This document shows positions 4,185 to 17,812 of a stretch of 64,000 nt of DNA, piece after piece. The notes beneath the pieces were generated by a model that was not told the DNA's origin, did not search any database, and saw only the letters and a program-made list of their open reading frames with translations. The DNA is from an uncultured Clostridia bacterium (GTDB lineage Bacteria > Bacillota > JAAYKD01 > CAYOCI01): contig CAYOCI010000001.1 of assembly GCA_964402415.1 (NCBI GenBank), positions 14,323 through 78,322 of the forward strand, read 5' to 3'. A program made the translations under genes and the position numbers. The first letter of the stretch is position 1, and every line of letters begins with the position of its first letter.

Positions 4185-5480
4185 CTAGTTACTCGCGACG
4201 GAAGACGTCATTGCCCGTGACGATCGAGCATCGGTTGCGTCGCTACACCCAAGAAGGTGATATCCGAAGCCAAGCCGCTCCATTTCTACCCTGTCGAGGA
4301 AGTCTCGAGTATCAAGGATTGTTGGTGTCCTCATGATTTGAGCGATGTGTCCATAATCAAGGTCCCTGAATACTGTGTGGTGGACTCCGAGGAGCAGTAG
4401 ATCTGCATCTTTGAGTTCGGAATGCACACTCAAGCGGTATTGTCTGATATACGGGTCAACGATAGACACCTGATAGTTGTGATCGTTCTCTAAAAGGTGG
4501 TATAGGTCCATAATCGGGCTCTCCCGAAGATCATCAACGTTAGGCTTGTATGTACACCCCAGTATAACCACCTTCCCCCCACCAGGCACCAACCGCCTTA
4601 CGCTGTCTAGGACATGTTTGGGCATACTATCGTTGATGTTTCGCGCTAGGGTGATCAGTTCTGCGGTGCCCGGCTGGGACTCTACAACGAACCATGGATC
4701 TACCGCTAAGCAATGTCCACCCACACCAGGCCCAGGCTGATGGAGATTCACACGAGGATGCTTGTTCGCATATCTAATAACTTCCCACGCACTAATACCT
4801 AGTTTCTCGCATAGCTTCGCAAGTTCATTGGCTAAGGCGATGTTCACATCGCGAAACGTGTTCTCCATGAGTTTACACATCTCGGCGGTGGTAGGGTCAG
4901 TGATGTACATTTCCCCTTTCACGAAGGACGCGTAGAGATTTCGGGCAGCCTCAGCTGACCTCCTGTCAATTCCCCCTATAACTCTATTGTTGTGGACCAA
5001 CTCAGAGACTATCTGACCGGGGAGCACGCGTTCAGGGCAGTGAGCCACCATGAAGTCTTGGCCCGCTCTGAGGCCACTTCTCTCCAGCACCGGGACAAGA
5101 ACATCTAGAGTGCATCTTGGGGACACCGTAGACTCGAGTATCACCAAGTTCCCATGAGCTAGAACGGGAACAATCATTTCTGCTGCGTTCACCACATAGG
5201 ATAGATCTGCCTTCTTATCGGCAGTAACAGGGGTGGGGACGGCTATTATGAAGTTATTGCAGGCGGTCACAACAGTCGAAGCAGATAGCATAGCGCGCTC
5301 CACACAGTCTCTAACAAGGTCCTCAAGCCCCGGTTCAACAATGTGTATGCCGCCTCGGGTGATGGTCTCACATATATCTCTGTTGATGTCAACGCCCTTG
5401 ACCCTGACACCATTGGAAGCAAAGACTGCTGAAGTAGGCAGGCCGATGTACCCCAGGCCAATTACACAGACTTCTTGCAC
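4185..5480 (-). CDS. UDP-N-acetyl-D-mannosamine dehydrogenase-like nucleotide-sugar dehydrogenase (WecC/Cap5O family)
   Basis: N-terminal Rossmann motif VIGLGYIGLPTS, catalytic Cys region GGHCL and a UDPG_MGDP_dh C-terminal domain. Confidence 0.75.
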   Translation of the reverse strand: MQEVCVIGLGYIGLPTSAVFASNGVRVKGVDINRDICETITRGGIHIVEPGLEDLVRDCVERAMLSASTVVTACNNFIIAVPTPVTADKKADLSYVVNAAEMIVPVLAHGNLVILESTVSPRCTLDVLVPVLERSGLRAGQDFMVAHCPERVLPGQIVSELVHNNRVIGGIDRRSAEAARNLYASFVKGEMYITDPTTAEMCKLMENTFRDVNIALANELAKLCEKLGISAWEVIRYANKHPRVNLHQPGPGVGGHCLAVDPWFVVESQPGTAELITLARNINDSMPKHVLDSVRRLVPGGGKVVILGCTYKPNVDDLRESPIMDLYHLLENDHNYQVSIVDPYIRQYRLSVHSELKDADLLLLGVHHTVFRDLDYGHIAQIMRTPTILDTRDFLDRVEMERLGFGYHLLGCSDATDARSSRAMTSSVASN

Positions 5481-5561
5481 ACGTCATCTCTCCTTCGACT
5501 TCGGTCGACTAGCACACTATCTCCACGTCTGCTATGTCATCATAGGTAACCCTACGCTCTC

Positions 5562-15819: not shown

Positions 15820-15856
15820 GACCGCACATCCCCTTTCATCATGCTTGGGACCAGAT

Positions 15857-17812
15857 CTACCTGGAAACCCCAGCGACCGATATGCTTGGTGAGGAATGAG
15901 CCTGAGCCGTGGACGTCACTCTTCGGATTTCCTCGCCAGGGACTCTTCCCTGTGGATCCGCCCCGGGAAATCCTGCACCGACATTTTCAGGTACTTCGCT
16001 CATTTGTGCGGCAAGTTCGATAACCTGCGCGCATGCGCAGCCTGACACAGAGAACTCTCTAACTGTGCCTAAAGCAGCTTCCACCACGCTCGCAGGCGGT
16101 ACCACCTGCCTGGCCACGAATATCCTCTTATGCTGCGTCGCAACCGTGCCCTCTTCCGCCGTCAACAGCTCCTCAAACAACTTCTCCCCGGGCCTAAGCC
16201 CAGTATACTCAATCCTTATATCCTCATCAGGCCGTAGCCCCGAAAGCGTGATCAGATCCCTCGCTAGGTCCACGATCTTGACTGGTTCCCCCATATCAAG
16301 GACGAAAACCTCTCCCCCATTCCCTAATGCCCCAGCCTGGATGACCAGGCTAACCGCCTCAGGAATGGTCATGAAATAGCGAATGATATCGGGATGGGTG
16401 ACCGTTACCGGACCACCACGGGCAATCTGCTCCTTGAACAACGGAACCACACTACCACGGCTGCCAAGGACGTTGCCAAAACGCACGGCCATGAACTTGG
16501 TCTGGCTGCGGCGGTTGATACTCTGCAGCACCAGCTCAGCAATGCGCTTGGTGGCACCCATGACATTGGTGGGGTTGACCGCCTTGTCCGAGGAGATCAT
16601 GACGAAACGTTCAACACCGTGCTTGTCCGCCGCCTCAGCCACGTTCTTGGTTCCCAGGACGTTATTCTTCAGCGCTTCGGTGGGGTTATACTCCATCAGC
16701 GGCACGTGCTTATGTGCTGCGGCGTGAAAGACAACATTGGGCTTATACTGATGAAAGACTTGATCGATGCGCAACTGATCCTGGATATCGGCGATAACGG
16801 GGATGATGGTTAGGTCGGGGAAGCTACGCACGATCTCTCTATGTATCTCGTAGATGCTGTTCTCGCCGTGACCGAGCAGGATCAGATTCGACGGTCTGAA
16901 GTTCGCCACTTGGCGTGAGAGCTCAGACCCGATCGATCCGCCGGCCCCGGTGATGAGCACGGTCCTGCCACTGACGTAGTCCGCAATACCGGTGAAGTCT
17001 GTCTTGATCTCCGGTCGCGGGAGCAGGTCCTCGATCTGGACATCGCGGATCTCGCTGATCTGGATATCGTCGCCTAGCATGCGGAACAGTCCTGGCATCG
17101 TCTTTGGCTTAATGCCTAAGGCGATGCTTCTTTGCACCAGCTCGCGGATCTTGGTGTAAGGCGCAGAGGGCATGGCAATGATGATCTCAACGATCTCGTG
17201 ATCGTGAACGATCTCCTCGAGTCTGAACAGCTCGCCTAAGACCGGTAGCCCGGCAACCATGAAGCCGCTCTTGAGGGGGTCATCATCGAGGAAGCCGACG
17301 AGCCTACAGTCGAGCTCGGGATGATAGACGATCTCCTCCGCCAGCATCCGACCTGCAGCCCCCGCACCGAGGACGAGTGTACGCTTATGTAATGCGGCGT
17401 TGCGTCCCCGCCGGCGTAAGTCGGCCGCTAGGCGCATGGCGAAACGAAAGCCGCCTACCGCGACGACATTGAAGAACCAGACCATCACTAGGACGCTACG
17501 CGGGAAGCGAACGTCGGGGTTCACATACATGACGCCAAACAAACTGACTGTCGCTACTGTCACAGCGGTAGCGATGGTGATGATCTCGCGGACGGAGGCG
17601 TAGCGCCAGATGCGGCTGTAGAGACCAATGTAGAAGTAGATGACGAAGTACAGCGGCATGCCAATGGTGAGATAACGTACCCAGGTCATGATATATGTGG
17701 GCTCGGGTATCCGGCCAAAGCGCAACCACAGGCCAAGAAAGCCGGAGAAGATAAGCGCCGAGAGGTCGAGGATGGCGAGGATGATTTTCGGGCGGTATTT
17801 GGAGAGGAACAC
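15857..17812 (-). CDS. membrane-anchored UDP-GlcNAc 4,6-dehydratase (PglF/CapD/EpsC family)
   Basis: N-terminal TM helices followed by SDR domains (LVLGAGAAGRMLAEE and VLITGAGGSIGSELSRQV). Start set at a GTG (about 17812) preceded by a GGGAGG SD. The ORF-track extension to 17920 is translated from CCACAG heptamer repeats and is probably not coding. Confidence 0.75.
   Translation of the reverse strand: MFLSKYRPKIILAILDLSALIFSGFLGLWLRFGRIPEPTYIMTWVRYLTIGMPLYFVIYFYIGLYSRIWRYASVREIITIATAVTVATVSLFGVMYVNPDVRFPRSVLVMVWFFNVVAVGGFRFAMRLAADLRRRGRNAALHKRTLVLGAGAAGRMLAEEIVYHPELDCRLVGFLDDDPLKSGFMVAGLPVLGELFRLEEIVHDHEIVEIIIAMPSAPYTKIRELVQRSIALGIKPKTMPGLFRMLGDDIQISEIRDVQIEDLLPRPEIKTDFTGIADYVSGRTVLITGAGGSIGSELSRQVANFRPSNLILLGHGENSIYEIHREIVRSFPDLTIIPVIADIQDQLRIDQVFHQYKPNVVFHAAAHKHVPLMEYNPTEALKNNVLGTKNVAEAADKHGVERFVMISSDKAVNPTNVMGATKRIAELVLQSINRRSQTKFMAVRFGNVLGSRGSVVPLFKEQIARGGPVTVTHPDIIRYFMTIPEAVSLVIQAGALGNGGEVFVLDMGEPVKIVDLARDLITLSGLRPDEDIRIEYTGLRPGEKLFEELLTAEEGTVATQHKRIFVARQVVPPASVVEAALGTVREFSVSGCACAQVIELAAQMSEVPENVGAGFPGADPQGRVPGEEIRRVTSTAQAHSSPSISVAGVSR

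Follow-up and report, generated by a model that had tools for sequence, protein, structure and literature searches.

An ATP-grasp ligase paired with a divergent DegT-like enzyme is predicted to decorate the 4-amino group of the initiating sugar in a Clostridia polysaccharide operon

A contiguous block of 13 open reading frames (ORFs) runs along the minus strand from position 19519 to 4185 in a 64,000-nucleotide stretch of contig CAYOCI010000001.1, from an uncultured Clostridia bacterium. This whole stretch is called the window, and all coordinates are window positions unless a related locus is named. It forms an operon for a Wzy-dependent exopolysaccharide or capsule in the genome of a spore-forming, flagellated member of the Bacillota, and it includes the gene for an ATP-grasp ligase that overlaps the gene for a divergent DegT-like pyridoxal 5′-phosphate (PLP) enzyme. 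A first-pass annotation of positions 4185-17812 had likened this pair to the Campylobacter capsule modules that amidate uronic acids, whereas the evidence assembled here points to N-acylation of an amino sugar. Gene families were assigned by searches of Pfam (threshold E≤0.001), NCBIfam and the PDB, and these recovered on the minus strand, at the same coordinates, every gene that had been listed earlier. The operon also extends upstream of the region covered by that annotation, to the genes for a chain-length determinant (Wzz) and a bacterial tyrosine kinase (BY-kinase) at 18112-19519. In the order of transcription, the genes are as follows.

18839..19519, minus strand: Wzz/CapA-type chain-length determinant (polysaccharide co-polymerase PCP2b), first gene of the operon; PF02706 and PF13807, with TIGR01006 at 164 bits, short of the 296-bit cut-off
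18112..18825, minus strand: bacterial tyrosine autokinase of the CapB/EpsB type; TIGR01007 at 231 bits, cut-off 108
15857..17812, minus strand: membrane-anchored UDP-GlcNAc 4,6-dehydratase of the PglF/CapD/EpsC/Pdeg type; PF02719 at 422 bits, and PF13727
14608..15819, minus strand: UDP-4-keto-6-deoxy-HexNAc C4 aminotransferase (the canonical DegT), Spr1654/Pat-like (AATGal/FucNAc4N type); PF01041 at 313 bits
13967..14611, minus strand: small monotopic phosphoglycosyl transferase (PGT) of the PglC/EpsL/WcfS type, the initiating enzyme; PF02397 at 198 bits
12854..13960, minus strand: divergent DegT-like PLP enzyme (DegTL), 368 residues; family profile, AlphaFold2 (AF2) model, Foldseek and hhalign
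11676..12869, minus strand: stand-alone ATP-grasp carboxylate-amine ligase of the L-amino-acid ligase (LAL) type, 397 residues; PF13535 and PF18603 (LAL_C2)
10226..11476, minus strand: GT4 glycosyltransferase; PF00534, PF13579 and PF13439
9095..10210, minus strand: second glycosyltransferase (GT), with a GT1-family fold; PF13692 and PF00534
7935..9113, minus strand: Wzy-type repeat-unit polymerase; PF04932 at 37.7 bits, cut-off 31.7
6656..7861, minus strand: FrhB/FdhB-like flavin/FeS protein that carries a ferredoxin domain (2x[4Fe-4S]) at its N terminus; PF04432 at 65.6 bits, and Fer4 families
5562..6680, minus strand: polysaccharide pyruvyl transferase; PF04230 at 97 bits
4185..5480, minus strand: UDP-ManNAc 6-dehydrogenase, Cap5O/WecC-like, last gene of the operon; three UDPG_MGDP_dh domains and a PDB match to Cap5O at 1.9e-121

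These frames abut or overlap, with the start of the PGT gene lying 4 bp inside the end of the C4 aminotransferase gene and the ATP-grasp gene overlapping the stop of the DegT-like gene by 16 bp, and gaps between operon genes are at most 300 nt. The 416-residue gene call for GT4 was adopted from the related contig L086, whose ATP-grasp protein is identical to that of the window. As in Wzy-dependent capsular polysaccharide and exopolysaccharide clusters of Gram-positive bacteria, a split Wzz and BY-kinase, an initiating PGT, GTs and Wzy occur in a single operon. Family searches among the 13 ORFs found no acetyltransferase of the Hexapep, GNAT or Acyl_transf_3 families and no member of a HAD or other phosphatase family. 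The GC content of the block is 47-52% compared with about 60% in the flanks, and the block was probably exchanged or acquired horizontally.

The genes for the first sugar identify its family. The dehydratase begins at a GTG codon at 17812, with a GGGAGG ribosome-binding site 8 nt upstream, so that the end coordinate of the first-pass annotation is a genuine gene start; the frame can be read on to 17920, but this extension enters a heptamer-repeat element. The best PDB match of the C4 aminotransferase is 6EWJ (Spr1654; 6.7e-159, 532 bits), which is far closer than PseC and other solved relatives. Spr1654 is the predicted aminotransferase for 2-acetamido-4-amino-2,4,6-trideoxygalactose (AATGal) in pneumococcal teichoic acid (PMC5936713). 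At the family level, these assignments support a 2-acetamido-4-amino-2,4,6-trideoxyhexose as the initiating sugar, in agreement with the bacillosamine-type sugar proposed earlier as far as a 4-amino trideoxyhexose is concerned. True bacillosamine is a poorer match, and the galacto epimer (FucNAc4N/AATGal) is more likely because the aminotransferase is so much closer in sequence to Spr1654 than to PseC.

The ATP-grasp protein has as its nearest solved relatives the L-amino-acid ligases BL00235 (2.4e-26) and BacD, according to a PDB search. No match to the TupA-like family PF14305 was found in it at E≤0.001, and a BLASTP comparison with a TupA-like protein returned E=0.017, making the two essentially unrelated. 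Its genetic context was examined in 52 metagenome loci that carry at least 4 kb of upstream sequence and encode an ATP-grasp protein with 46-58% identity to the window enzyme, by scoring neighbors within 5 kb. A small PGT is present in all 52 loci and a Spr1654-like DegT in 48, while a DegT-like protein occurs in 21, a uronic-acid dehydrogenase in nine and a GNAT protein in four; a GT4 gene follows the ATP-grasp gene in 30. Gene order within this orthogroup varies between related arrangements. In locus L124, the series dehydratase, DegT, PGT and ATP-grasp is followed only by GTs, Wzy, a pyruvyl transferase and a Wzx flippase, with no uronic-acid gene, and in L129 and L158 the order is dehydratase, DegT, ATP-grasp and PGT, which we take to be the gene order of Bacillus cereus. 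A role for the ATP-grasp enzyme outside glycan synthesis, such as dipeptide synthesis, was also considered and rejected on account of the strict synteny with PGT, DegT and GT4 and the overlap of its frame with those of its neighbors.

A second survey was anchored on the DegT-like protein and covered 80 genomes, each representing a different species of the collection, which were annotated by phmmer searches with window proteins and reference neighbors. An ATP-grasp protein or a FemAB-like N-acyltransferase is encoded within 3 kb in 62 of these loci, and a small PGT within 3 kb in 48. A canonical DegT is present somewhere in the locus in 59 cases and a 4,6-dehydratase in 41, whereas a uronic-acid dehydrogenase occurs in the locus in ten and within 3 kb in only two. 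Together, the counts indicate that the conserved partners of the ATP-grasp ligase are the enzymes that make and transfer a 4-amino sugar, rather than a uronic-acid enzyme.

The single ATP-grasp orthogroup (44-56% identity to the window enzyme) is distributed over four interleaved locus classes, having respectively a DegT-like gene, a gene for a 335-residue extended short-chain dehydrogenase/reductase (SDR), a GNAT gene or none of these. DegT-like and SDR genes come close to excluding each other (both in 1 locus, DegT-like only in 20, SDR only in 11 and neither in 20; Fisher p=0.017, uncorrected for phylogeny). In L087 (6312-7319), L088 (6335-7342) and 10 of the 52 metagenome loci, all without a DegT-like gene, the SDR gene lies between the DegT and PGT genes.

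The DegT-like protein itself is highly divergent. Searched alone, it matches no Pfam family at E≤0.001, including PF01041, and no PDB entry by sequence; a weak precomputed PF01041 match exists for only some of its homologues. A profile built from 35 homologues nevertheless matches the sugar aminotransferase QdtB (3e-11) in a PDB profile search. Residues D138, S158, R160, K161, R341 and Y342 are invariant in the 35-sequence alignment, which also contains a family-specific IPCDQRY motif. The AF2 model (pLDDT 92) retrieves sugar aminotransferases in Foldseek at probability 1.0 and 12-17% identity, with AtmS13, ArnB, PseC, QdtB and WbpE on top. In an hhalign alignment with the neighboring canonical DegT, K161 coincides with the Schiff-base Lys and D138 with the PLP pyridine-N Asp. 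These results bear out what had been a by-eye call of a divergent DegT-like enzyme. By sequence, the protein belongs to a sister family that has diverged beyond PF01041, and the model indicates that it is probably an active fold-type I PLP enzyme with the nucleotide-sugar aminotransferase fold.

Homologues of this protein number more than 150 in the protein database, and a scan of species-representative genomes adds more than 546 relatives, spread across Bacillota and Bacteroidales; we found no characterised member among them. In loci L005 and L019 and in proteins P0032, P0037 and P0097, the DegT-like protein is fused to the PGT, which fits an enzyme that acts immediately before sugar transfer. 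There are also loci in which a FemAB-like (Acetyltransf_6) gene, often together with a GNAT gene, replaces or joins the ATP-grasp gene next to the DegT-like gene (L002-L004 from Clostridium perfringens, L007, L009-L011, L013, L015 and others). This arrangement points to a family of amino sugars bearing N-aminoacyl or N-acyl groups, encoded in the capsule loci of C. perfringens as well as in other genomes.

The distal part of the operon supplies the acidic components of the polysaccharide. The terminal dehydrogenase scores 426 bits against NF008286, just under the cut-off of 459, and its match to Cap5O makes the assignment as a UDP-ManNAc dehydrogenase sound. Its substrate would come from outside the operon.

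40498..41871, minus strand: UDP-GlcNAc 2-epimerase MnaA/WecB, unlinked, 23 kb away; PF02350 at 383 bits

The epimerase had been described as sitting near the cluster. The gene is real, but it lies outside the cluster and beside a tagO-type gene at 41940-43004, which matches PF00953. N-acetylmannosaminuronic acid (ManNAcA), as proposed in the first-pass annotation, is thus likely to be part of the repeat unit at the level of gene families, with UDP-ManNAc provided by the unlinked MnaA.

A pyruvate-derived substituent is likewise supported at the family level by the pyruvyl transferase gene, although this protein has no solved relative by sequence. The ketal form in which the pyruvate had been predicted to occur is an assumption, and the FrhB-like partner that had been cited for it does not by itself imply a ketal. 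An FrhB-like gene also neighbors a pyruvyl transferase gene in L017, L082 and L105, and in L047 the two are joined in one fused gene; literature searches for this pairing returned nothing. By analogy with MurA and MurB, we speculate that the FrhB-like protein may act as a reductase that turns an enolpyruvyl ether into its lactyl (1-carboxyethyl) counterpart, rather than take part in ketal formation. The combination of a 2,4-diamino-2,4,6-trideoxyhexose, ManNAcA and pyruvate agrees at the family level with the acidic, decorated heteropolysaccharide that was anticipated, and the presence of one PGT and two GTs suggests a trisaccharide backbone.

Pathways that produce related sugars provide a framework for the central genes. 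In B. cereus ATCC 14579, the UDP-yelosamine gene set consists of Pdeg, Pat (Bc5273), Pyl (Bc5272) and the small PGT Q814Z7, and PMC11626204 (citing Hwang 2014) describes Pat and Pyl as making UDP-FucNAc-4N-(2)-oxoglutarate from genes directly upstream of that of the small PGT. Both this system and the window combine a 4,6-dehydratase, a DegT-family C4 aminotransferase (probably of the galacto/AATGal type in the window), a stand-alone ATP-grasp ligase and a small PGT in one operon that has no acetyltransferase. The dehydratase is encoded in the window operon itself, and a stand-alone ATP-grasp ligase with an adjacent small PGT is found at every locus of the orthogroup, whose members are 44-58% identical (52/52). 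The Spr1654-likeness of the aminotransferase, moreover, fits the galacto 4-amine used by Pyl. Unlike in B. cereus, the window ATP-grasp gene follows the PGT gene and is coupled to an extra DegT-like enzyme that goes unmentioned in the summary of the B. cereus pathway in PMC11626204, and the predicted repeat unit carries ManNAcA and pyruvate.

Other 4-amino sugar pathways share part of this logic. The dehydratase, aminotransferase and small PGT correspond to EpsC, EpsN and EpsL of Bacillus subtilis and to PglF, PglE and PglC of Campylobacter jejuni, which act with the acetyltransferases EpsM and PglD, respectively, in the route to N,N′-diacetylbacillosamine (PMC10653937). The window has no EpsM or PglD, however; the ATP-grasp and DegT-like genes occupy that slot and the aminotransferase is Spr1654-like. 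A similar replacement is known from Neisseria, where the acetyltransferase domain of PglB has given way in PglB2 to an ATP-grasp domain that is proposed to install the glyceroyl group of the 4-glyceramido sugar GATDH (PMC11130364 and PMC6959607). In both cases an ATP-grasp enzyme tied to a PGT stands where other systems have the acetyltransferase for capping bacillosamine-type sugars at the 4-amino position. In Neisseria the domain and the PGT form one polypeptide that serves O-linked protein glycosylation, whereas the window ligase is a separate protein and the product is expected to be polymerised by Wzy. In relatives of the window locus, the fusion partner of the PGT is the DegT-like protein, as opposed to the ATP-grasp domain of PglB2.

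An AATGal-type aminotransferase and a small PGT without an acetyltransferase are also found in the zwitterionic systems for Bacteroides fragilis polysaccharide A (PSA), the Streptococcus pneumoniae type 1 capsule and teichoic acid. PSA also bears pyruvate, and the type 1 capsule bears uronic acids. In contrast to the window, these systems leave N4 free and have no ATP-grasp/DegT-like pair. WcfR and UDP-FucNAc4N are treated in PMC11626204.

We favor, with moderate confidence, a model in which the ATP-grasp enzyme N-acylates the 4-amino group of an AATGal-type, yelosamine-like initiating sugar in a polymer that also contains ManNAcA and pyruvate. Because the operon has no acetyltransferase, the ligase most plausibly fills the PglD/EpsM slot. 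The analysis establishes the families to which the genes belong, the organisation of the operon, the conservation of its synteny and the residues with which the DegT-like protein binds PLP; the N4 acceptor, the acyl donor, the DegT-like reaction, the sugar stereochemistry and the order of residues are inferred. The PglF-like dehydratase would convert UDP-GlcNAc to UDP-4-keto-6-deoxy-HexNAc, from which the Spr1654/Pat-like aminotransferase would form UDP-2-acetamido-4-amino-2,4,6-trideoxyhexose, probably as the galacto epimer. The LAL-type ligase would then form an acyl phosphate from a carboxylic acid and join the acyl group to the 4-amino group, and the translationally coupled DegT-like enzyme would tailor this acyl group before the small PGT places the decorated sugar on undecaprenyl phosphate. 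Two further residues, one of them very likely ManNAcA, would be contributed by the two GTs, and the pyruvyl transferase with its FrhB-like redox partner would attach the pyruvate-derived group. Polymerisation by Wzy would follow, with Wzz and the BY-kinase governing chain length and export.

What the DegT-like enzyme does to the acyl group is a matter for speculation, our best guess being transamination of a 2-oxo to a 2-amino group, for example from oxoglutaryl to gamma-glutamyl. After C4 amination, the sole keto group remaining in a yelosamine-type pathway is the 2-oxo group of the side chain, which we therefore propose as the target of both the DegT-like enzyme and the SDR. Both proteins have superfamily relatives that work on nucleotide-sugar keto groups, and so they are proposed as alternative means of tailoring the side chain. 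The SDR is a candidate reductase for making a 2-hydroxyglutaryl side chain from UDP-yelosamine, and a 2-hydroxyglutaryl form occurs in the B. cereus polymer. Taken to its full extent, this idea makes the DegT-like family a set of nucleotide-sugar side-chain aminotransferases with the previously undescribed product UDP-4-N-(gamma-glutamyl)-AATGal, has the SDR reduce the same keto group in sister loci, and yields a zwitterionic, pyruvylated polymer with ManNAcA; we put this forward only tentatively, as a possibility that is rather doubtful in its entirety. The 2-oxoglutarate donor would in that case be a by-product of the preceding C4 transamination.

Several observations weigh against the favored model and its extension. 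The proposed orthology of the ATP-grasp enzyme to Pyl is drawn from synteny, and because its nearest solved relatives are L-amino-acid ligases the donor could be an amino acid instead of a 2-oxo acid. The statistic for SDR and DegT-like exclusivity ignores phylogeny, the two genes sit differently relative to the PGT gene, and the SDR is only weakly similar to known epimerases and reductases (66 bits). Where the DegT-like protein is paired only with FemAB-like and GNAT proteins, as in C. perfringens and others, it is not evident where a side-chain keto group would come from. One alternative builds on an amino acid as donor: the ligase would couple N4 to an amino acid, either a standard one or a D-amino acid, that the DegT-like enzyme provides or modifies, for instance by transaminating a D-amino acid or deaminating a side chain. 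The LAL_C2 domain and the solved relatives agree with such an N-aminoacyl sugar, as does the interchange with FemAB-like enzymes, which points to aminoacyl transfer; FemAB enzymes are normally aminoacyl-tRNA-dependent, and the GNAT protein in some loci could cap a free alpha-amine. We nonetheless find it quite improbable, as the DegT-like fold is that of nucleotide-sugar rather than amino-acid aminotransferases, and Pyl, the only characterised enzyme with this synteny, uses 2-oxoglutarate according to PMC11626204. Alternatively, the DegT-like protein could be a second nucleotide-sugar aminotransferase of other stereochemistry or position, whose amine is acylated by the adjacent ligase while the product of the canonical DegT is used separately, for example as free-amine AATGal. 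This would be the most parsimonious reading of a DegT-like gene followed by an N-acylating enzyme in both ATP-grasp and FemAB loci; the fold and intact PLP site are appropriate, and the conserved downstream GT4 could transfer the product. It is unlikely, though, given that 31 of the 52 same-orthogroup loci have no DegT-like gene, so that the ligase there must use the canonical DegT product as Pyl does, and that the accessory classes are interleaved within one orthogroup. The module furthermore has no second conserved enzyme that generates a keto sugar, and the fusions of PGT to DegT-like protein suggest that the DegT-like product is the PGT substrate.

Uronic acid amidation, as first suggested, would have the ATP-grasp enzyme join an amine or amino acid made by the DegT-like enzyme to the C6 carboxylate of ManNAcA, comparable to the glucuronamide module (Cj1435-Cj1438, with Cj1436, Cj1437 and Cj1438C) of C. 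jejuni HS:2. The two loci resemble each other in having ATP-grasp and PLP enzymes within a polysaccharide locus that makes a uronic acid, and Cj1438C demonstrates that activation of a uronate carboxylate is feasible for an ATP-grasp enzyme. The window encodes a UDP-ManNAc dehydrogenase as well as the pair, and a minority of related loci contain a uronic dehydrogenase (9/52 and 10/80). Because of the dehydrogenase in the window, uronic amidation keeps some probability for this one locus as far as synteny goes, a further point against N4 acylation. However, Cj1438C is a TupA-like amidoligase fused to a GT2 domain that uses phospho-amines and needs a HAD phosphatase, as PMC11800379 reports, whereas hidden Markov model annotation makes the window enzyme LAL-type and stand-alone, without PF14305, a GT2 fusion or a phosphatase and in synteny with an amino-sugar/PGT module. 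A uronic dehydrogenase is missing from the neighborhood in more than 80% of related loci, yet a PGT is present in 100% and an AATGal-type aminotransferase in 92%, and L124 is devoid of uronic-acid genes. In many loci, moreover, a FemAB-like N-acyltransferase stands in for the ATP-grasp enzyme, and amidation of a carboxylate is impossible for a FemAB-like protein. On these grounds we regard uronic amidation as very improbable, and N4 acylation of the initiating sugar remains the model that we prefer.

The locus is of an ordinary type, and its real interest lies in the DegT-like family and in the modular tailoring slot beside the ATP-grasp gene. N-acyl groups on bacillosamine- and AATGal-type sugars shape antigenicity, charge and immune recognition, as zwitterionic polysaccharides illustrate. 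The preferred model reassigns a common pair of LAL-type ATP-grasp and DegT-like enzymes, found in gut Clostridia, Bacilli and Bacteroidales, from uronic amidation to N4 tailoring and links it to a single characterised precedent, Pat/Pyl. A slot that accepts DegT-like, SDR, GNAT or FemAB-like proteins probably yields much chemical diversity at the N4 position, and the model would sharpen substrate prediction for unassigned small-PGT clusters.

Two features lie immediately downstream of the operon.

4089..4104, minus strand: terminator-like hairpin with a T-run, 3′ of the dehydrogenase gene; consensus scan, a pattern match only
2233..3924, minus strand: MurJ-family flippase gene of genomic GC content, a separate transcription unit beyond the terminator-like site; TIGR01695 at 356 bits, cut-off 235

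No Wzx (Polysacc_synt) flippase is encoded within the operon, and for this reason the adjacent MurJ-family protein is a candidate that may serve as the repeat-unit flippase in place of Wzx. The related loci L001, L024, L096 and L126, which have no Polysacc_synt Wzx, likewise end in MurJ-type genes. Beyond the MurJ gene, positions 1-2233 comprise about 2.2 kb of 60% GC in which the longest ORF on either strand is at most 132 residues and Rfam has no match; the region may be decayed, may not code for protein, or may hold a gene with frameshifts.

Upstream of the operon, a non-coding leader of about 1 kb (19520-20570) separates flgG from the Wzz gene and includes a strong hairpin at 19544-19567. 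It contains no ORF longer than 77 residues, and an Rfam search of positions 1-21000, which include the leader, gave no match. A promoter-like site lies at 19613-19585, upstream of the Wzz gene, although such sites showed no enrichment over shuffled sequence.

Dozens of short tandem heptamer arrays, of the form (GAGGGGC)n, (GGGACTA)n, (CTGTGGA)n and their complements, occupy intergenic positions in the window, including the following.

17842-17934, 21597-21633, 22779-22848, 24307-24503, 27384-27420, 27959-27998: heptamer arrays
30213-30325, 36073-36114, 36817-37011, 41669-41703, 41869-41903, 46372-46406: heptamer arrays
48233-48292, 49178-49212, 52348-52566, 52908-53100, 55338-55393, 55814-55862: heptamer arrays

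They often form inverted pairs on either side of genes, and one lies directly upstream of the dehydratase start. Many ORFs are lengthened at their N termini by these arrays, giving recurring peptides such as GARGEGRG. The arrays are similar to the short tandemly repeated repetitive (STRR) sequences of cyanobacteria, yet the genome looks like one of the Bacillota.

Finally, positions 59147-63235 encode a large surface-layer-like protein of about 1360 residues with two C-terminal Cu_amine_oxidN1 "stalk" domains. Additional copies of the Cu_amine_oxidN1-coding repeat are located at the end of the window (63482-63825), suggesting a paralogous family of cell-surface proteins.

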